A DNA stretch of 64,000 nt from an uncultured Gammaproteobacteria bacterium (lineage in GTDB: Bacteria > Patescibacteriota > Patescibacteriia > UBA9934): positions 125,440 to 189,439 of the forward strand of contig CAZTKG010000003.1 in assembly GCA_964613815.1 (NCBI GenBank), in the 5' to 3' direction. The stretch's first letter is position 1. Each line of letters begins with the position of its first letter. Shown one piece after another: positions 5,288 to 35,932 of this stretch. Below the pieces are notes generated by a model, which saw nothing but the letters and a program-made list of their open reading frames with translations, ran no database searches and was not told the origin of the DNA. The translations under genes were made by a program, and so were the position numbers.

Positions 5288-5330
5288 ATTTGCTAGAGAT
5301 TTCTGGTGAGCGCATTATATCATGACGTAT

Positions 5331-12036: not shown

Positions 12037-12114
12037 CGTCATTGCGAGCGTAGCGCGGCAATCTTGCGGTTGTGCCTCGCGGATTGGGATTGCCGCGCTA
12101 CGCTCGCAATGACA
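12037..12114. repeat. perfect 26-bp inverted repeat (GTCATTGCGAGCGTAGCGCGGCAATC) with 26-nt spacer
   Basis: The two arms are exact reverse complements. It lies between rplA and dcd. Confidence 0.8.
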
Positions 12115-19146: not shown

Positions 19147-19194
19147 CCATCTCGACCTTGGCGGAGAGATCTCTCCACTGCGGTCGAGATGGGA
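19147..19194. repeat. dispersed nested palindromic repeat, copy 1 (CCATCTCGACC-N5-GGAGAGATCTCTCC-N5-GGTCGAGATGG)
   Basis: Exact 11-bp outer arms and a 14-bp central palindrome, between convergent gatB and miaA. Confidence 0.8.
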
Positions 19195-21688: not shown

Positions 21689-21701
21689 ATGCGTCTTTGC
21701 C

Positions 21702-21750
21702 CCATCTCGAGCGAAGTCGAGAGATCTCTCCACTTCGGTCGAGATGGGAA
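21702..21750. repeat. dispersed nested palindromic repeat, copy 2
   Basis: CCATCTCGAGC...GAGAGATCTCTC...GGTCGAGATGG, 14 nt upstream of the thrS start. Confidence 0.8.
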
Positions 21751-23821: not shown

Positions 23822-23847
23822 ATTTCGCGGCGTGATTTTTTTTGTTT

Positions 23848-23893
23848 CCATCTCGACCTTGTGGAGGGATCTCTCCGCAAGGTCGAGATGGGA
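23848..23893. repeat. dispersed nested palindromic repeat, copy 3
   Basis: CCATCTCGACC-ttgtg-GAGGGATCTCTCC-gcaa-GGTCGAGATGG. Confidence 0.8.
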
Positions 23894-23915
23894 ATTGGAT
23901 GATGCACCAGGTTCG

Positions 23916-25162: not shown

Positions 25163-28100
25163 TTACCGCGAGAACATCACGTTCTGTTTCCCGACGATTT
25201 CTTGGATGCTTGCAATCACCTCCCCGTCTGGATCAATGAGATATTCTGTTTGGACTTTTCGGGAGCGCTCACCTGACCTTACGACGAGATAGACACGTTC
25301 TTTGCCGGGGTTTGCTTTTAGGAGCGCCTGCAGGTTTGTGATCATGTCTGGGGTTGGCTTTTGTGGGACGACGATGGAGACCCCCTGCATGACGAACGGA
25401 TTCATGATTTCGTTTTCACCGTCCTCTAATGACGGCCACATTCCTCGTTTTAGTGCTGACTTTACGATTGGCGTATCGGACTCTTCGAAACTCAGGAGTT
25501 GGTCGCACAGAATACTTCGACGACCTTCGTCGCCGTCTCGCACGGATACTTTTCCGGCGATGAGAGTAAGCTTTCCCTCGATGAGCTGATGCTGTATCTC
25601 TGCGAATATTTTCGGGAAGACAACGATCTCTAGCTCCCCTGCCCCGTCTTCTAGCTTCACAAAGGCCATGGGCTTTTGATGCTTCTTGGTCAGGATCTTT
25701 TTTACGGTACCGATGACACCAGCGACTTGGGTCATAGATTGGTTTTCCAGTCCTTGCACTGCCGATGTTTTGACAGTGAGATCTCCAAGAGTTTCTGAGA
25801 GGATTTTTCCTGGGTGGTTTGAGACGTAGATCCCGAGAAGCTCTTTTTCCCAAGCCATGAGTTCGCCTTTTGAGATCGGCTCTTTGACCTCTCTTAGGCG
25901 CAGCTTACTGTCTTGCATTGCTGGAGCCATGTCGAACATAGAGACTTGGTTCTGCTCCTTTTCTTTACTGATCTGCTTTGTGAAGAGAAGCATCTGGTCC
26001 AGGTTTGTGACCAAGCACTCTCTTTCTTCGAACCTATCTATTGCCCCTGACTTTGTAAGCGCCTCTAGGGCTTTTTTGTTTAGGGCGCTTGCTGGGACTC
26101 TGGATAGGAAATCTACTAAATCTACGAAATCTCCGTTTTCTTTTCGCTCCTGGACAAGCACTTTTGCAACTTCGTCTCCGTAGTTTTTGATGGCGCGAAG
26201 GCCCCAGCGGATGTTTCCTGTTTCTGGGACAACAGCGAAGCTTGGAAATGATTCGTTTACGTCTGGCGGGAGGACCTCGATACCAAGACGACGGCATTCT
26301 TCTACCTCGATCGTGATGCGGTCGATGTTTCCTGCGTCGGAGTTCATGAGGGCGGCCATGAAGGCGGATGGATAGTGCGCTTTGAGGTAGGCGGTCCAGT
26401 AGGCGATGGTTCCGTAGCAGGCGGCGTGGGATTTGTTGAATCCGTAGGCGGCAAAGTCTTCTAGTTTTTGGAAAATCTCTTCTGCGATGCGTTTTGGTAC
26501 GCCGTTTTCTACGGAGCCAGCAATAAACTTGACCTTCATTTTGGCCATCAGCTCGACGATCTTCTTTCCCATTGCTTTACGGAGCGTGTCCGCCTCTCCC
26601 CCGGTGAAGCCCGCCATTTCTTTGGAGATTTGCATCACCTGTTCTTGGTAGACGGGGATTCCGTAGGTTTCTTTGAACGAGTTTTCCATTTTTGGATGCT
26701 CGTATTCGATCTTTTCTTTGCCGTGCTTTCGCGCGATAAAGCTCTCGATGAACTGCATTGGGCCTGGGCGGTAGAGAGCCACCATCGCGATGATGTCTTC
26801 GAAGACGGTGGGTTTGAGTTCGCGGATGTAGCGCTTCATGCCGTCTGACTCGAGTTGGAAAACGCCAGTGGTGTCGCCGCGGCCGAGGAGTTCGAAGGTT
26901 TTTTTGTCTTCGAGGGGGATGTCTTCCACGACGACGGTGTCGCCGTAGACGGCTTTGATGACCTTGATCGCGTCTTGGATCACGGTGAGGTTTGAAAGGC
27001 CGAGGAAGTCCATTTTGACGAGTCCTGCGGCTTCTGCGGAGTTGAGAGAGTACTGGGTGACAAGGGCGGTGTCTTCTCTTTGGCCGGCTTGAAGCGGGGC
27101 GCGCTCGACGAGTGGCTTGTCTCCGACCACGAATCCGCAGGCGTGCTGCGAGGCGTGACGGGGGTTTCCCTCGATTTTCATGGCGAGGTCGATGACGCGG
27201 CGGGCCATGGCTTGGCCGTTGTAAAGCTGCTTGAGTTCTGGGTCTTCTTTGATGGCGATTCCGAGAGGCGTGTGGCGACCCTGTACGGGAGGTGGGACGG
27301 TTTTGGCGATAAGGTCTGCTTCGTCGTATTCGAGACCGAGGACGCGGGCAGCGTCGCGGACGGCGGCGCGGGGCATCATGGTTCCGAAGGTGATGATACC
27401 GGCGACGTGGTCGGCGCCGTATTTTTCCGTGACGTACCCGAGGACCTCCCCTCGCCTGGTGTCGGTGAAGTCTAGGTCGACGTCTGGCATGGAGATTCTG
27501 TCTGGGTTTAAGAAGCGCTCGAAAAGAAGGCCGTATTTGAGTGGGTCGATGTCGGTGATCTTTAGGGCGTAGGAGATGATGGAGCCTGCAGCAGATCCTC
27601 GGCCTGGGCCGACGAGGATTCCCTGGTCTTTTGCCCAGTTTACAAAGTCCTGGACGATAATAAAGTACGAGGCAAAGCCCATGTTTTTGATCACGCCGAA
27701 CTCGTATTCGAACCGTTCGAGTACTTCTTCTGAGAGATCGTTTCCGTAGCGTACTTTGAGCCCTGCTAGCGTGAGGTCGTGCAGGTAGTCGTCATCTGTC
27801 TTCCCTGGCGGCATCGGGAAGATCGGCAGGTAGTTGTTGCCTAAGTCCATTTCGAAGGTGACGGAGTCTGCCACCTTTTTTGTGTTCATGATGGCTTCTG
27901 GGATGTGCTTGTAGGCGTCGAAGATTTCTTGATTGCTGCACATGGAAAGATCCACATCCATTGGATTGGTTTGGCGGAAGCGTTCTAGCGTGCGGCCGCG
28001 TTGGATGCAGAGTTGGGCCTCGTATCCTTCTTTATCTTCTGACTTGATGTAGAACGAGTTGCGGGTGACGATGAGAGGAGCGCCGGTTTTTTTGCCGAAT

Positions 28101-28684
28101 TCGATGAGCTTTTCGTTGAGCTCAACTTGGCGGGCGTAGTCTGGGTGGTGAATGAGTTCTAGGTAGAAATTTTCCTCACCGACGATTTGTTGCCATTCAC
28201 GGAGGATAGACTCGGCCTTTTCGTGGTCGTCCATTGAGAGCGCTGAGGGGATTTGGCCTTTTGGTCCGCCTGATAAGACTGTAACGCCTTTGCCGTGGGA
28301 CTTCATGAACTCCATGTCGACGCGGGGCTTGTAGTAGAAGCCTTCGAGAAAGCCGGCGGTGGTGATTTTGAGAATGTTTTTGTAGCCGTCGTCGTTTCTT
28401 GCGAGGAGTGTTGCGCGGTGAGGGCGGCCGTCTAGACGTGAGCGTTTTAGGTGCATGCCGTGGACCGCGATGAAGGCGTCGAGGCCGATGATGGGCTTGA
28501 TCTCTGCCTTTTTGCAGGCTTTATAAAACTCCACGGCTCCATACATGGAGCCGTTGTCGGTAAGTGCGATTGCCTTCCCTCCTTGCTCGAGTGTGTGCGC
28601 GACAAGCTTCTTTGGGCTTGGTAGCGCTTCGAGGAGTGAGTAATGCGAATGCACATGAAGATTGACGAAATCTTCTGGCGTCAT
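25163..28684 (-). CDS. dnaE: DNA polymerase III subunit alpha
   Basis: PHP domain HVHSHYS at the N-terminus, then polymerase core, OB fold and other DnaE-wide similarity. The 90-aa N-terminal extension in the ORF track is a high-GC read-through and was removed. Confidence 0.95.
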   Translation of the reverse strand: MTPEDFVNLHVHSHYSLLEALPSPKKLVAHTLEQGGKAIALTDNGSMYGAVEFYKACKKAEIKPIIGLDAFIAVHGMHLKRSRLDGRPHRATLLARNDDGYKNILKITTAGFLEGFYYKPRVDMEFMKSHGKGVTVLSGGPKGQIPSALSMDDHEKAESILREWQQIVGEENFYLELIHHPDYARQVELNEKLIEFGKKTGAPLIVTRNSFYIKSEDKEGYEAQLCIQRGRTLERFRQTNPMDVDLSMCSNQEIFDAYKHIPEAIMNTKKVADSVTFEMDLGNNYLPIFPMPPGKTDDDYLHDLTLAGLKVRYGNDLSEEVLERFEYEFGVIKNMGFASYFIIVQDFVNWAKDQGILVGPGRGSAAGSIISYALKITDIDPLKYGLLFERFLNPDRISMPDVDLDFTDTRRGEVLGYVTEKYGADHVAGIITFGTMMPRAAVRDAARVLGLEYDEADLIAKTVPPPVQGRHTPLGIAIKEDPELKQLYNGQAMARRVIDLAMKIEGNPRHASQHACGFVVGDKPLVERAPLQAGQREDTALVTQYSLNSAEAAGLVKMDFLGLSNLTVIQDAIKVIKAVYGDTVVVEDIPLEDKKTFELLGRGDTTGVFQLESDGMKRYIRELKPTVFEDIIAMVALYRPGPMQFIESFIARKHGKEKIEYEHPKMENSFKETYGIPVYQEQVMQISKEMAGFTGGEADTLRKAMGKKIVELMAKMKVKFIAGSVENGVPKRIAEEIFQKLEDFAAYGFNKSHAACYGTIAYWTAYLKAHYPSAFMAALMNSDAGNIDRITIEVEECRRLGIEVLPPDVNESFPSFAVVPETGNIRWGLRAIKNYGDEVAKVLVQERKENGDFVDLVDFLSRVPASALNKKALEALTKSGAIDRFEERECLVTNLDQMLLFTKQISKEKEQNQVSMFDMAPAMQDSKLRLREVKEPISKGELMAWEKELLGIYVSNHPGKILSETLGDLTVKTSAVQGLENQSMTQVAGVIGTVKKILTKKHQKPMAFVKLEDGAGELEIVVFPKIFAEIQHQLIEGKLTLIAGKVSVRDGDEGRRSILCDQLLSFEESDTPIVKSALKRGMWPSLEDGENEIMNPFVMQGVSIVVPQKPTPDMITNLQALLKANPGKERVYLVVRSGERSRKVQTEYLIDPDGEVIASIQEIVGKQNVMFSR

Positions 28685-28726
28685 ATCACATTTTAGATTA
28701 GCAAAGATGTGGGAAAGAAAAAAGCC

Positions 28727-28762
28727 CCCGACGAGAGCTGGGCTCGATCGTCGGGGGGTGTG
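28727..28762 (-). terminator. rho-independent terminator after the 28782..29369 membrane gene
   Basis: Minus strand CCCCCGACGA-tcgagcccagctc-TCGTCGGGGG followed by CTTTTTT. Confidence 0.5.
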
Positions 28763-28781
28763 CCGTGGGCGGGCGCGTTGT

Positions 28782-29369
28782 CTAGGCCGGGTCGAACTCG
28801 ACCGGGGGGCAGACCTTGCCGTGGGCCGTGCGGAGGACGGCGATGAGGAAGGACTTGTTGAGCGCGATCTTGATGCGCTCGATGAGCCGCTCCGCTGGGC
28901 GCTCGATGAGCATGTAGGCAGCCATCGCCATGAACGTGAACGTGAACGCACCACCTACGGCCATGGCGAGGCTGATCATCACCTGCTGGAAGTGATCCAT
29001 CGCCTCGATGATCACCATCGGAATTGCGCCAAGCATCATGAGGAGGAGCTTGCCTACCCCGATGAGCGTGTACACGACCGCGTCGATGCCGGCGAGACCG
29101 GTGTGCTCGCTGACGATCTCGACCACTCCAACGAACGAGATCAGAGCGAAGACGCCGATGATCTGCAGCATGAAGGCTTCGGAGCCGGTGCCTCTCGAGT
29201 ACATGTCCTTGTAGAACAATGTCCAGCCGAAAGCCGAGAAATAGATCTCGTCGATGACGGCTCTGACGTACGGGCAGAGACCGATGTGTCCGGCGTCGAG
29301 GACCTCGACGTGGTAGGGGTTGGCGCGCAGGTAGAGTCTGCGATGCCAGGCGTTTTGTGGGAATCTCAT
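28782..29369 (-). CDS. hypothetical membrane protein, high-GC (paralog A)
   Basis: N-terminal WHRRLYL...LCPY and C-terminal VCPPVEF motifs shared with 30030..30608, and 4 TM helices. Confidence 0.55.
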   Translation of the reverse strand: MRFPQNAWHRRLYLRANPYHVEVLDAGHIGLCPYVRAVIDEIYFSAFGWTLFYKDMYSRGTGSEAFMLQIIGVFALISFVGVVEIVSEHTGLAGIDAVVYTLIGVGKLLLMMLGAIPMVIIEAMDHFQQVMISLAMAVGGAFTFTFMAMAAYMLIERPAERLIERIKIALNKSFLIAVLRTAHGKVCPPVEFDPA

Positions 29370-29396
29370 GTGATTTCACCTCTTGGTTGAAGGAAC

Positions 29397-29437
29397 TTTA
29401 GCGGTAAAATATACCAAATATTCTGCCTTTTGTCAAT
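29397..29437 (-). promoter_or_regulatory. conserved-family promoter (TTGACA-N17-TATATT followed by TTACCGCTA)
   Basis: Minus-strand read gaattgacaaaaggcagaatatttggtatattttaccgcta. Confidence 0.5.
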
Positions 29438-29487
29438 TCCCCCGGGTACTGAATAGAAAAAACCTCCCTTGTTGGGAGATTGAGGAC

Positions 29488-29919
29488 TTACGCGTCTGCA
29501 GCGGTGAAGAGTTCGGCGAATGCGGACATGGAGTCGTCCACCGTGTCCTGCAGGGAATTGCTGAGCTGACGCAGTGTGACGTGGAACGCGATCGCGAGGG
29601 CGATGGTCTGGCTGACGGAGTCGGTGCCGACCCTGCCCTGCAGCTCAGCGAGTACCGCCTTTGCCTCGGCGCTGAACGTCATGCCGAAGGCGTCGGTTCC
29701 GGCGTAGCTGTCCATGATGGCCCGTGCTTTACCCATCGCATCTTCCCCGAGGCTTCCGAGGCGTTCTACTTCGGCGCGCCTGTTGGGGTCTGTGAACACG
29801 TCCAGTGCGCGGAGGGATCTGCGAATGGCCTCGCCCGCGGTGCGCGAGTGGAGATCCGGTGTTGCCGCCCTGAGCATGGGCATGTTGATGTGGATGATGT
29901 TACCTGAGGATGATGACAT
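29488..29919 (-). CDS. hypothetical small alpha-helical protein (high-GC)
   Basis: Begins MSSSSGNII. The longer ORF-track start was rejected because it overlaps the real downstream paralog in another frame. Confidence 0.45.
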   Translation of the reverse strand: MSSSSGNIIHINMPMLRAATPDLHSRTAGEAIRRSLRALDVFTDPNRRAEVERLGSLGEDAMGKARAIMDSYAGTDAFGMTFSAEAKAVLAELQGRVGTDSVSQTIALAIAFHVTLRQLSNSLQDTVDDSMSAFAELFTAADA

Positions 29920-30029
29920 GTCTTCTCCTGAAAAAGGACGCTTTAGACTAGATTTTTTCGCTGGGTTTGTCAAGAAGTAAATGAAAAACCCCGGCGGGCC
30001 AAGCTGGGCTTGGGGCCGGGGCGGACGCG

Positions 30030-30608
30030 CTACTGCGCAGAGAAGCGGACGGGTGGGCAGACGCGGTTCCAGGTGGCGATGGCCATGGCTCCGAGGAGGG
30101 TGGAGGCGATGTAGGCCTTGGTGCGGATCAAGAACTTCCAGATGATGGAGCTCGTAATCGCTACAGCGACCCAGAATGCCAGCACGAATGGCACGCCGAT
30201 CGCAAACTTGCCCATCTGCAGGAGTTCGCCGGGAGCGTTGCGAATGAGATTCCCACCGATGTAGGACGTGAACTCCCAGATCACCGACACGAAGGCGATG
30301 AGCGTTCCCATGGCATCGGCGTGGATCATGGTGGCTATCTCGTGGAATGCGAGCACGAAGGCGATGGCACAGATCGAGACCACGAACCACCAGAGGCGGA
30401 TCAGGAAGGTGAACATGACGCTGTCGACGAATGAGAATCCGTCTTCGGTCTGCTTGCCGAAGTTGCGTCGCCAGATCTCGCCGACGACGGTCCAGAAGTA
30501 GGGACAGAGGTGAACCTCTTCGTTTTCGATACGCAGCCAGTCTCCTGGTTTGGCGTCGAGGTAGACCTGGCGATGCCAGACGTTTTTGTTGAACATGGAT
30601 GACTCCAT
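30030..30608 (-). CDS. hypothetical membrane protein, high-GC (paralog B)
   Basis: WHRQVYL...LCPYFW and RVCPPVRF motifs, paralogous to 28782..29369. Confidence 0.55.
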   Translation of the reverse strand: MESSMFNKNVWHRQVYLDAKPGDWLRIENEEVHLCPYFWTVVGEIWRRNFGKQTEDGFSFVDSVMFTFLIRLWWFVVSICAIAFVLAFHEIATMIHADAMGTLIAFVSVIWEFTSYIGGNLIRNAPGELLQMGKFAIGVPFVLAFWVAVAITSSIIWKFLIRTKAYIASTLLGAMAIATWNRVCPPVRFSAQ

Positions 30609-30627
30609 TGAATGAACGGTGGTGGAT

Positions 30628-30659
30628 TACTATAGCGGAAAAATGTCGTTTTGTCAATA
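30628..30659 (-). promoter_or_regulatory. conserved promoter block (TTGACAAAACGACATTTTTCCGCTATAGT)
   Basis: -35 TTGACA, 17-nt spacer, -10 TATAGT, about 20 nt upstream of the paralog B start. Confidence 0.5.
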
Positions 30660-31048
30660 AGAAAACCGGCTGGCCGAGTTGAGATCGGTGCCGGTTTATG
30701 TGCATGAAATCCTTTGTATAAGGCATGTTGTCCTTATTTATCTCATGCGCTTAGCGCTGCGTGTCCCGCCTTTGTGACTTGCACTCCCCCACCCCATCGC
30801 CTTGTGATGAGGCCTCTCTGGTGCAGGGATAGCAGGATGAGCTGACAGACCTGGCTTGATAACTCCCATCGCTTCCTCATTTCTCTGATGCAGATGCGAT
30901 GCGATGGCCCACCTTTACCGTTCCAGTCCCCCTCTATTCTTTAGATGCAGCCGAGAACTTGTCTCGTTTCTGCCTTAGTCATCTATCCCCCGAAAAAGAA
31001 CTTGGGTATTGAGCCATAAATGCGTCACGTCGTCAAAAAGAAAAACCG

Positions 31049-31408
31049 CTACTCTTGCGGTTCAACGATGGTGAGTGATGTGATGTTGTGACGGGCCGGT
31101 GGGCCCTTATCCCATCTGACCATGATCTTGAAGAGACCTGGCGCGTCTGAGCAGAAGATGAACAGGACGATCCCTCTCTTTTTTCCGCCGGATGTCATGC
31201 GGACATGTTTTCCGATCCACTTCTCCTGCAAGGCGCGGAAGTCTGCGATCCTCTGCAAAAAATGTGTATTGTCTTGCGTTCCCCTGAGCGCATTTTCAAA
31301 CCAGTAGATCAGCCAAAGCGCCGTGATTCGCTTTGGAGGCAGGATGAGGCCATGCGTCTCGAAGAACGCTTTTTGATCCTCTGTTGGAGGATTTCTCTTT
31401 CTGGGCAT
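31049..31408 (-). CDS. hypothetical protein
   Basis: ORF only. Lies downstream of hicA. Confidence 0.3.
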   Translation of the reverse strand: MPRKRNPPTEDQKAFFETHGLILPPKRITALWLIYWFENALRGTQDNTHFLQRIADFRALQEKWIGKHVRMTSGGKKRGIVLFIFCSDAPGLFKIMVRWDKGPPARHNITSLTIVEPQE

Positions 31409-31458
31409 CTTCTCCTCATAAATGAGCTGATGTCAGCCTACCTCGTTGCCAGCCCTTG

Positions 31459-31698
31459 TCAATGGAGCGCATTCCAAATATCGTCTTCGGAAACTCCCCA
31501 GCTGCGCAGGATTTTGAATATCTTTTTGTTAATGATTTTGTGTAAGCTCTTTTGTATCGTGTACTTTTCTCCGGTTGTTGGATTCTTAACCAAAACATGG
31601 CTTCCCTTGCCATGTTTTGTTTCTACGATGAGATTGAGCTTTTTACAGGCTCGAATCCATTGTTTTTGGGTAATGTCAGCAAGACTTCTGCTAGACAT
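31459..31698 (-). CDS. hicA: HicA-family mRNA interferase toxin
   Basis: KHGKGSHVLVKNP...YTIQ...INKKIFKILRSWGV matches the HicA/YcfA signature (GSH...P...K). Confidence 0.8.
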   Translation of the reverse strand: MSSRSLADITQKQWIRACKKLNLIVETKHGKGSHVLVKNPTTGEKYTIQKSLHKIINKKIFKILRSWGVSEDDIWNALH

Positions 31699-31966
31699 AT
31701 GCCCGCTCTTTGATCTTTACTGTCTTGCCAGCTCTCTCGAGCATCGCATGATTGCAAAGATGTGCGGGAATTTCGAAGTAGGTGAAAATCGCGTCCTGAA
31801 TGGCGGCGTCAATGTCCGATGGAAAGCTTGATCCTCCAGTGAGGATACCTTTTATGTTTGTGGACTCTGCGGCCCATTCGCCTGTCGGCTCGTTTTCGAA
31901 GTGAAAAGAGATCCCGCCCAGGCGACTTATGGTTGATCTCATTTTTTGCAGGCGAATGTCTTGCAT
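31691..31966 (-). CDS. hicB: HicB-family antitoxin
   Basis: FENEPTGEWAAESTNIKGILTGGSSFPSDIDAAIQDAIFTY RNase-H-like HicB N-domain. Overlaps hicA by 8 nt. The start was placed at the internal MQDIR. Confidence 0.65.
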   Translation of the reverse strand: MQDIRLQKMRSTISRLGGISFHFENEPTGEWAAESTNIKGILTGGSSFPSDIDAAIQDAIFTYFEIPAHLCNHAMLERAGKTVKIKERAYV

Positions 31967-32292
31967 TACTTCTTCTTTTTGGATTTTGATGCGATCTTTC
32001 TTTTCTTTTTTGCTGGTGCAAGGATTTTGTCCGTCTCTTTTTTGACTCCCTCTGCCGCCTTTTTGATGTGGCCGGTCATCTTTTGGATGTGGGTTGCGCC
32101 GTGTTCTACTTTTGAGCGGACGCCGTGGAGGGCTTGCTCGACGCGGTCCATGCTGTAGCGGACGTCTGACAGGAGCGTGCTGATGGTGCGGATGGCTTTG
32201 GTGACGTGGTAGACGAACCAGCAGATGAATGCGGTTACCCAAAGTACGCAGAATGCGATGACGATATAGAGCAAATCTTGAGCCTCAAACAT
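31966..32292 (-). CDS. small single-TM protein with Lys-rich C-terminal tail (DUF948/YtxH-like), first gene of the hicBA operon
   Basis: GGAGGAAG RBS, a TM helix and a coiled coil. Its TAA stop overlaps the hicB ATG (TAATG). Confidence 0.45.
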   Translation of the reverse strand: MFEAQDLLYIVIAFCVLWVTAFICWFVYHVTKAIRTISTLLSDVRYSMDRVEQALHGVRSKVEHGATHIQKMTGHIKKAAEGVKKETDKILAPAKKKRKIASKSKKKK

Positions 32293-32340
32293 ACTTCCTC
32301 CGTTCGGCGTCCATATCCTTCGCATTTTCGGCTTACGCAT

Positions 32341-32397
32341 TCATTTTTTCGACACCGTACGATTTAGTACGCCTTACGAAAAAATGAATTCGTGCAC
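32341..32397. promoter_or_regulatory. palindromic operator candidate (TCATTTTTTCG-N35-CGAAAAAATGA) upstream of the three-gene hicBA operon
   Basis: 11-bp perfect inverted repeat about 35 nt upstream of the operon's first start, lying between the pheT stop and the operon. Confidence 0.4.
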
Positions 32398-32443
32398 CGA
32401 AACTGCTTTGAATATGAACCCCTCAGTTAATGTAATTTATTGT

Positions 32444-34837
<2,394 letters not shown>

Positions 34838-34864: not shown

Positions 34865-35932
34865 CTAAAACTGCTTCAAGAATCTAAAGTCGTTCTTGTA
34901 GAGAATTCTGATGTCGTCGATATTGAGACCTGCTCGCATCATGTTTGTGCGCTCCACTCCCCAACCGAAGGCGAATCCTGTGTATTCGTCTGGGTCGATG
35001 CCGCCAGCTTCGAGTGTTCGTGGGTGGACCATTCCTGCTCCACCGAGTTCGTGCCACCCTTCTTTGCAAACACGGCAACGTTTTCCATCCTTCTCCCCTA
35101 CCCCTTTGCAGATTGGGCACGTGATGTCGATTTCGAATGCTGGTTCCACGAAACGGAAGTGAAATGGGCGGAGGCGGATTTCTCGGTCGTGGCCGAAGTA
35201 GTTTTTGACGAAAAAGTCGATGACGCCTTTGAGGTGACTGACGGATATGTTCTTGTCGATCATGAGGCCCTCGAACTGGTGGAACATTGGGCAATGTGTT
35301 GCATCTGATTGGCGGCGGTACGTCTTGTTGATGTTGATCATGCGGATTGGGAGGTCGCGTTGTTCCATTTCGCGGACCTGGCCGTTTGAGGTGTGCGGAG
35401 TGAGGACAACCTTTCCCTTTTTGCCCTTCCAGGTTTTTGATTGATCTGTAGGGCCTGCCATGAAGAATGTCTCCCATTCGTCTCGCGCTGGGTGGTCTTT
35501 TGGCATGTTTAGGGATTCGAAGGCGTACCAGTCCCAATCAATCTCTGGGTGACGGGCGCGGACGAAGCCTAGGCGCTTGAAGATATCTGCTACTTCTTCG
35601 ATGGCCTGTGAGACGAGGTGGATACTTCCCTGGTCTGATCGTGCTCCAGGAATGGTCATGTCTACGCGTTCTGATTCTATTTTGGCGTCTTTTTCCGTGT
35701 GCTTGATGCGGTGCTCAGCCTCTTCGAATTCTTGCTGGATCTGGGCCTTTAGGGCGTTAAGCGCCTTTCCTTGCGCGGCTCGCGCTTCTGAGTCTAAGCT
35801 TGATAGCTCCTTCATGGCGGCGGCGAGTCGACCCTTTCTGCCGATGAATTCGATTCGGATGTTTTCGATGTCTTCTGCTGATTCTGCTTTGATGATTGCC
35901 GCGTGGAAGTCTTCTAGTAGGTTTTGGCTCAT
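34865..35932 (-). CDS. pheS: phenylalanine--tRNA ligase alpha subunit
   Basis: Class II motifs, with GAGMVHP...FAFGWGVER matching E. coli PheS. Contains an extra CPICKG...CRVCKEG zinc-ribbon insertion. Confidence 0.95.
   Translation of the reverse strand: MSQNLLEDFHAAIIKAESAEDIENIRIEFIGRKGRLAAAMKELSSLDSEARAAQGKALNALKAQIQQEFEEAEHRIKHTEKDAKIESERVDMTIPGARSDQGSIHLVSQAIEEVADIFKRLGFVRARHPEIDWDWYAFESLNMPKDHPARDEWETFFMAGPTDQSKTWKGKKGKVVLTPHTSNGQVREMEQRDLPIRMININKTYRRQSDATHCPMFHQFEGLMIDKNISVSHLKGVIDFFVKNYFGHDREIRLRPFHFRFVEPAFEIDITCPICKGVGEKDGKRCRVCKEGWHELGGAGMVHPRTLEAGGIDPDEYTGFAFGWGVERTNMMRAGLNIDDIRILYKNDFRFLKQF

Follow-up and report, generated by a model that had tools for sequence, protein, structure and literature searches.

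The window analysed here is a stretch of 64,000 nucleotides (nt) from contig CAZTKG010000003.1 of an uncultured bacterium assigned to the Patescibacteriota, and our subject is the gene cluster at its positions 31459–32397, which an earlier note had described as a three-gene hicB-hicA toxin-antitoxin operon with a membrane protein as extra component and a palindromic operator. All features of the locus lie on the minus strand. In the 5′ to 3′ direction they are pheS, pheT, a spacer, open reading frames (ORFs) of 108, 91, 79 and 119 amino acids (aa), and a terminator-like hairpin (Table 1). The local arrangement is as the note had it: the HicB-like ORF (91 aa) precedes the HicA-like ORF (79 aa) and overlaps it by 8 nt (sequence ATGTCTAG), and the TAA of the upstream 108-aa ORF, which encodes the membrane protein, overlaps the ATG of the HicB-like ORF (TAATG, within GTAATGC at 31964–31970). 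What these genes are, how they came to be joined, and what the palindrome belongs to were assessed with profile searches, structure prediction and comparison with loci fetched from other genomes and metagenomes, which are cited below by L numbers where they need to be told apart.

We identify the 79-aa protein as a divergent HicA, the support for which consists of its predicted structure and its remote profile matches. The hidden Markov model (HMM) check that the earlier note had called for formally failed, the match to HicA_toxin (PF07927) reaching 16.3 bits (E 0.011) where the cutoff is 27. Weak matches to the same profile recur in 12 of 13 family members (relatives 57–72% identical; best E 1.1e-4), and the motif G30-K31-G32-S33-H34, invariant in 13/13 HicA-like sequences, is aligned by profile search to the GKGSH of Streptococcus pneumoniae HicA (5yrz). 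Its His and Gly correspond to residues essential in characterised HicAs, for which mutagenesis has shown that a Gly/His motif (e.g., Gly22/His24 of Burkholderia pseudomallei HicA) is needed for toxicity or RNase activity (PMC11594946). An AlphaFold2 model built from 12 sequences, with a predicted local distance difference test score (pLDDT) of 88, has an α-β-β-β-α order followed by a short extra C-terminal helix. In a Foldseek search with this model the match of highest probability was HicA3 (0.82; TM-score 0.53–0.62), at a non-significant E-value. The nearest structural neighbours, well separated from whatever ranked next, were 1whz of Thermus thermophilus and three HicA toxins deposited in the PDB. 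Direct phmmer searches of PDB sequences with either the HicA-like or the HicB-like protein returned nothing meaningful.

The 91-aa partner is probably a small HicB, an identity less secure than that of HicA, the evidence for it being remote profile matches, all of them weak, and a conserved position next to HicA. Here too the HMM check failed: the protein has no Pfam match, an NCBIfam scan found nothing relevant and PADLOC gave noise-level matches only. A word-based search found a single homolog, and an exhaustive profile search recovered 98 representative clusters at 50% identity, mostly of 105–135 aa. When an 88-sequence profile of the family was compared with the PDB, HicB-type structures ranked first, third and sixth of nine matches (Escherichia coli HicB 6u0i, E 0.028, and 6hpb, E 0.036; TTHA1013 1wv8, E 0.26), with calmodulin and a tubulin chaperone interleaved at similar E-values. 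The aligned stretch, G-x-W-x-A-E-S ... G-I-I-T-G-G ... D-A-I-F-T-x-F, has PEGGYMVSFVDIPEALTQGETVAEAMEAAKDALLTAFD as its HicB counterpart and covers a putative β2-β3-α1 region, assigned from sequence pattern alone. Member-by-member Pfam scans of 88 relatives gave weak matches to DUF1902 (six members), HicB_lk_antitox (three) and UPF0150 (one); DUF1902 genes often neighbour hicA (Gerdes 2024, PMC10865869). Pfam scans of the window protein and its relatives detected no DNA-binding domain, and about 25 residues follow the conserved core. An alternative reading of the hicB frame as 183 aa from a TTG start was set aside, its upstream extension being unlike the homologs.

The pairing of the two genes is systematic. 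Among 80 metagenome loci encoding a HicB-like homolog, gathered with a 13-sequence alignment, 76 have a HicA-like gene, in the same orientation, as the very next gene downstream, and the 8-nt overlap (TATGCCTAG/A) is preserved in 53 of 57 distinct hicBA pairs; on this point the earlier reading of a coupled hicB-hicA pair is supported. The pair occurs in unrelated neighbourhoods (L001, L004–L007 and a Joint Genome Institute contig), next to a DEAD helicase, to ParB and a transposase, or to glycosyltransferase and rhamnose genes. The family, some 98 clusters at 50% identity, comes mainly from candidate phyla radiation (CPR) and groundwater metagenomes. Judged from its genomic distribution, the hicBA pair is a conserved mobile two-gene module. 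The other cassettes carry a conserved promoter region of their own, TTGACA-N17-TGTAAAAT and then, some 35 nt ahead of the ATG, TGnTATAAT. In 12 loci (L112, L114, L121, L125, L128, L137, L145, L147, L159, L162, L168 and L178) a double-promoter-like region, TTGACAAA-N17-TGTAAAAT and then TGTGATATAATATAAAC, stands about 100 nt upstream of the HicB-like gene, often with a short TAAAC-N-GTTTA palindrome, and this region is a better candidate for the regulatory site of the family than the palindrome of the window.

The membrane-protein gene has a different history. Its start was placed at the ATG at 32292, after GGAGGA, which agrees with the N-termini of 10 homologs; a 124-aa reading from 32340 was rejected, as the extension is unlike the homologs. 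These 10 proteins (87–109 aa) share an invariant transmembrane core, D-L-L-x-I-V-I-A-F-C-x-L, and have variable Lys-rich tails. The protein matched DUF948 (PF06103) below cutoff (18.6 bits vs 37.2), and weak matches to that profile were found in 11/11 members (best E 3.2e-4). In Uhrbacteria relatives the gene lies between pheS-pheT and dnaE, and a genome scan recovered it at 80 loci, distributed over Uhr-, Magasanik-, Falkow-, Buchanan- and Komeilibacteria, with pheT present at 63/80 and dnaE at 57/80. None of these 80 genome loci has a hicA or hicB homolog within 3.5 kb, and none of the 80 hicBA loci has the membrane gene within 2 kb. The conservation of the three-gene arrangement in relatives, which the earlier note had proposed to check, is therefore nil in either direction, and the three-gene operon is not supported. 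By this comparison of gene neighbourhoods, the membrane protein is encoded by a conserved gene of the host and is no third component of the toxin-antitoxin system.

The palindrome to which the earlier note assigned an operator function is real as a sequence feature. The 11-bp inverted repeat is exact (TCATTTTTTCG at 32341–32351 and CGAAAAAATGA at 32377–32387) and occurs once in 64 kb, against an expectation of 0.00 from shuffled sequences. It does lie upstream of the first start codon as described; the distance of about 35 nt does not hold, since the membrane ORF starts at 32292 and the proximal arm is therefore 48 nt away. The repeat is the inner stem of a much longer imperfect hairpin, the longest inverted repeat of the window, with a minimum free energy of −58.7 kcal/mol (z −8.27) that 0/200 shuffles equalled. 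An Rfam scan of 30900–32600 gave solely a chance match of a microRNA model on the hairpin (E 0.75). A hairpin occupies the same position (z −7.35) in L014, an Uhrbacteria locus that has no hicBA; it shares with the window the apex GGCGUAC-N6-GUACG and the middle stem AGUUUCG/CGAAAAU, and in the comparison of these two sequences 13 of 33 pairs are changed on both sides with pairing kept. Among 180 loci the apex motif is confined to the window and L014 lineages, and the exact 11-bp repeat was found only in copies of the same organism and is absent upstream of the other hicBA cassettes, which have the conserved promoter of their own described above. The palindrome stands upstream of the membrane gene as part of a hairpin whose apex is shared by the closest relative without hicBA. 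From these comparisons we take the palindrome-bearing hairpin to be a host feature older than the insertion, and not an operator of HicB.

In the window lineage and one related lineage, then, the DUF948-like gene is preceded by a conserved hairpin of about 125 nt, whose end is within about 10 nt of the start codon. L019 has a long hairpin of unrelated sequence in the same position, and across the window, L014 and L019 the hairpin ends 2–11 nt before the start codon. The hairpins of L019 (3839–3943, z −6.3) and L014 (3824–4000, z −7.4) directly precede the DUF948-like start, with no obvious Shine-Dalgarno sequence seen, and in L014 a canonical terminator lies just upstream of the hairpin. A family-wide hairpin element upstream of the membrane gene was considered and rejected because strong hairpins are exceptional across the 80 loci (z < −4 in 7.5%; median z −1.1). 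Inside the last pheT codons of the window, 25 nt upstream of the hairpin, stands an extended −10-like sequence; sites of the form TGNTATAAT number 4 in 64 kb vs 0.67 expected, the others being at 5314, 15121 and 62362. We infer that this site serves as promoter of the hairpin leader and of the genes downstream, and that the membrane-gene transcript would begin with the hairpin as a structured 5′ leader; the hairpin may also have a role at the level of DNA.

How the cassette came to stand behind the membrane gene is indicated by the limits of homology on either side. Synteny with L014 and L017 in tblastx comparisons ends at about 32026 and restarts at 28684. About 3.3 kb separates the membrane gene from dnaE in the window, against a median of 283 nt and a largest value of 2063 nt across 54 genomes. 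GC content within this islet is patchy, from 0.40 to 0.62, with hicA at 0.40 and three ORFs at about 0.60, vs 0.515 for the window as a whole. No homologs of the islet ORFs of 119, 188, 143 and 195 aa were found in any of the fetched loci, and all contigs carrying the window cassette are one strain-level sequence. Full-length HicB-like homologs (104–120 aa) have a conserved N-terminal segment of about 25 aa, x-I-Y-x-L-A-x-L-R-K-x-G-x-x-F-x-E, which is absent from the window protein: the window copy begins only near profile position 22, members uncut by contig ends cover the profile from positions 1–4, and among 75 such uncut copies the truncation is unique to the window. The core motifs W31, AES, GILTGG and DAIFTYFEIP are kept. 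No promoter-like motif, that of the family included, lies upstream of the window hicB. Because homology to both families ends at the TAATG junction, we read this junction as an insertion or fusion joint; and because the N-terminal segment of HicB and the promoter are missing, the apparent coupling of the membrane gene to hicB is the scar of an insertion or deletion by which a 5′-truncated cassette became joined to a host gene at its 3′ end. Comparison with related genomes and with the rest of the family shows a cassette that sits in an acquired islet, inserted into conserved synteny, and has lost its own promoter and about 20 first codons of hicB.

Table 1 Features of the locus in the 64-kb window.
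Feature	Position	Strand	Remarks
pheS	34865..35932	−	First gene in 5′ to 3′ order
pheT	32444..34837	−	Upstream synteny anchor; identical gene in L008 has Pfam B3_4, B5, tRNA_synthFbeta and FDX-ACB
Extended −10-like sequence TGCTATAAT	32451..32459	−	Inside last pheT codons; 25 nt upstream of hairpin
Spacer between pheT and membrane gene			151 nt
Long imperfect hairpin	32302..32426	−	About 125 nt, between pheT and membrane gene; 11-bp repeat is the inner stem
DUF948-like membrane-protein gene	31966..32292	−	108 aa; small, N-terminal single transmembrane helix, coiled coil, Lys tail
HicB-like antitoxin candidate	31691..31966	−	91 aa; 5′-truncated relative to its own family; DNA-binding domain not detected
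HicA-like toxin gene	31459..31698	−	79 aa; divergent HicA family
119-aa ORF	31049..31408	−	50 nt downstream of hicA; preceded by GAGGAG
Intrinsic-terminator-like hairpin and T-run	31043..31063	−	At the end of the 119-aa ORF
Window-specific 3.3-kb islet	28685..32025	−	Between membrane gene and dnaE; hicBA, 119-aa ORF, two paralogous multi-transmembrane ORFs, 143-aa ORF
dnaE	25163..28684	−	Downstream synteny anchor; 61–76% tblastx identity to the DNA_pol3_alpha genes of L014/L017

The explanation that we favour, and in which we have fair confidence, is that the locus holds a two-gene hicBA-type (type II) cassette of a divergent family, lying in an acquired islet behind a host membrane gene and having lost its promoter and the 5′ end of hicB. 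By analogy with characterised systems, the 79-aa protein would be an RNase toxin with the fold of a double-stranded RNA-binding domain (dsRBD) and a His-dependent activity, and the 91-aa protein, which would have no DNA-binding domain, would neutralise it by covering the active site, as seen in HicAB complexes of known structure; translation of hicB and hicA would be coupled through their conserved 8-nt stop/start overlap. In this genome, the closest relatives of which bear the name Candidatus Uhrbacteria (Patescibacteria), the 3.3-kb islet was inserted between the DUF948-like gene and dnaE. The promoter region of the cassette and some 20 first codons of hicB were lost during or after that insertion, leaving a remnant of hicB that starts at the ATG overlapping the TAA of the membrane gene. 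Expression would then proceed by read-through from the extended −10 at 32451–59 through the hairpin leader, the membrane gene, hicB, hicA and the 119-aa ORF to the terminator at 31043–63. As both ORFs and their core motifs are intact, the function of the pair has presumably been retained.

Several points weigh against this explanation and call for caution in its interpretation. The HicA_toxin score of the 79-aa protein is below the gathering cutoff, no Foldseek match of its model has a significant E-value, and the 91-aa protein is without any Pfam match, its family profile reaching E-values of only about 0.03 with HicB structures in the PDB. AlphaFold2 produced an unusable model of the HicB-like protein from a two-sequence alignment (pLDDT 45), and its partial RNase-H fold (β-β-β-α-β) is accordingly putative. 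Window HicA differs from its family at 3 of 34 strongly conserved columns, G22N included, and the HicB-like protein deviates at 6 of the 33 such columns left in it; being truncated, the antitoxin may be impaired. Toxicity, neutralisation and co-transcription are predicted.

Some of these points would suit a scenario in which the cassette was crippled on insertion and is now a decaying remnant with no working toxin-antitoxin function, its ORFs persisting as the event was recent. The window copy is the sole N-terminally truncated one among the 75 uncut family copies, it deviates at several conserved columns in both proteins, and its own promoter is missing; all contigs that carry it are one strain-level sequence and therefore provide no evidence of purifying selection. 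Both ORFs are intact nonetheless, free of stop codons and frameshifts, HicA keeps its catalytic GKGSH and the partner its HicB-like core motifs, the 8-nt coupling overlap is undamaged, and an intact toxin beside a dead antitoxin would be counter-selected. We therefore regard decay as unlikely, though worth bearing in mind. One may also postulate that the host side is of greater interest than the toxin-antitoxin pair and that the hairpin leader is an undescribed cis-regulatory RNA, for instance one that RNase III cleaves, that senses temperature or that gates translation; in that case the hicBA pair behind it, promoterless and N-terminally truncated, would be a domesticated toxin module with its expression governed by the leader. 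We consider this quite unlikely.

Much less probable is a non-toxin module, in which a HicA-fold (dsRBD-like) RNA-binding protein and an unrelated partner would serve non-toxic regulation, the likeness of the partner to HicB being due to chance. Every HMM match is indeed under its curated threshold, the HicB-like model has a pLDDT of 45, and the family is so far without any experimental test; yet no family member departs from the catalytic His and Gly, structural comparison puts 1whz and three HicA toxins of the PDB first, the independent weak matches of the partner family are all HicB-type, and a mobile two-gene unit that turns up in unrelated neighbourhoods and is coupled in translation is what one usually sees in type II toxin-antitoxin systems. 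Finally, a true three-component operon, in which the Lys-tailed transmembrane protein modulates or belongs to HicAB and HicB autoregulates via the 11-bp palindrome, could appeal to three contiguous ORFs with overlapping stop and start codons and to a likely co-expression with the membrane gene in this genome, where hicB has no separate promoter before it, but we give it hardly any credence, as it is largely refuted by a comparative context in which co-occurrence is 0/80 from either side, the membrane gene is a syntenic host gene of the pheT-X-dnaE type, the palindrome lies in a hairpin shared with a hicBA-less relative and is not near other cassettes, and the HicB-like protein has no recognisable DNA-binding domain.

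Of the other genes in the islet, the 119-aa ORF has no Pfam, NCBIfam or PADLOC match; it is probably co-transcribed with hicA, and the transcription unit likely ends at the terminator-like hairpin that follows. The two paralogous multi-transmembrane ORFs, 188 aa at 30030–30596 (−) and 195 aa at 28782–29369 (−), have a GC content of about 0.6 vs 0.515 for the window, share an N-terminal N-x-W-H-R-x-x-Y-L ... L-C-P-Y and a C-terminal V-C-P-P-V-x-F, and have no Pfam or PADLOC match. The stretch 29488–30726 (−) is annotated variously by gene callers across assemblies, as 143, 131 or 412 aa; the 412-aa ATG ORF, which is rich in Arg and His towards its beginning and shares DNA with the 188-aa ORF in a different frame, is probably spurious. 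Elsewhere in the window, three palindromic hairpins resembling repetitive extragenic palindromic (REP) elements (19147–19192, 21701–21748 and 23845–23894) have the common arms CCATCTCGA ... TCGAGATGG, a 9-mer of which occurs 9 times in 64 kb vs about 1 expected, and look like a small family of repeated intergenic palindromes. The strongest perfect palindrome of the window is a 26-nt inverted repeat at 12038–12063 and 12088–12113, with a 24-nt loop (GTCATTGCGAGCGTAGCGCGGCAATC).

Taken as a whole, the locus is a divergent, sub-threshold Class 2 hicBA in a small genomic islet, and as such a fairly ordinary finding. With it, the catalogue of compact Class 2 modules gains a divergent hicBA family that escapes detection by Pfam; as of Gerdes 2024 (PMC10865869), Class 1 and Class 2 modules were without experimental analysis. 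It also provides a clean case of a toxin-antitoxin cassette that has been wired into a host operon without its promoter and the N-terminus of its antitoxin, and a reminder that contiguity and overlapping stop and start codons alone can falsely imply a three-component system. Residual curiosity attaches to the host side, where the conserved synteny of pheT, the DUF948-like gene and dnaE and the long hairpin leader are minor features of Patescibacteria genomes that await an explanation.

Among known families, the membrane protein is closest to DUF948 (PF06103), with which it has in common an N-terminal transmembrane helix followed by a charged helical region, the profile being matched over about 75 residues by 11/11 members. 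It differs in scoring about 18 bits against the cutoff of 37.2, and its family is specific to Patescibacteria, where the gene keeps to one place, between pheT and dnaE. The toxin shares the HicA fold and the catalytic His motif with the classical HicAB systems of E. coli (6hpb/6u0i), Yersinia pestis (HicA3B3, 4p78), B. pseudomallei (6g26) and S. pneumoniae (5yrz), and there is a weak alignment between the core of the partner family and the N-terminal domain with which E. coli HicB neutralises its toxin. In the scheme of Gerdes the classical systems, Classes 3 and 4, are hicAB operons (PMC10865869), whereas the gene order in the window is reversed; the partner has no match to a DNA-binding domain, unlike a classical HicB of these classes, and the palindrome is not tied to the cassette.

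The system that the pair most resembles is Class 2 hicBA, defined by a hicB upstream of hicA, a small HicB (63–103 codons) without a DNA-binding domain, and linked or overlapping genes (Gerdes 2024, mBio, PMC10865869). It departs from that class in that full-length family members, at 104–120 aa, are slightly above this range, in that both proteins of the window pair fall under Pfam thresholds, and in the N-terminal segment of about 25 aa that the family has and the window copy has lost; the window copy is, in addition, promoterless and fused behind a host gene. In common with Class 2 it has the order hicB-hicA, overlapping genes that imply translational coupling, and a HicA within the 60–85 aa of a single dsRBD-type domain with a Gly/His motif (79 aa in the window); and the HicB-like protein of the window, with its 91 aa, its 8-nt overlap and its lack of a detected DNA-binding domain, lies within the bounds by which Class 2 is defined.

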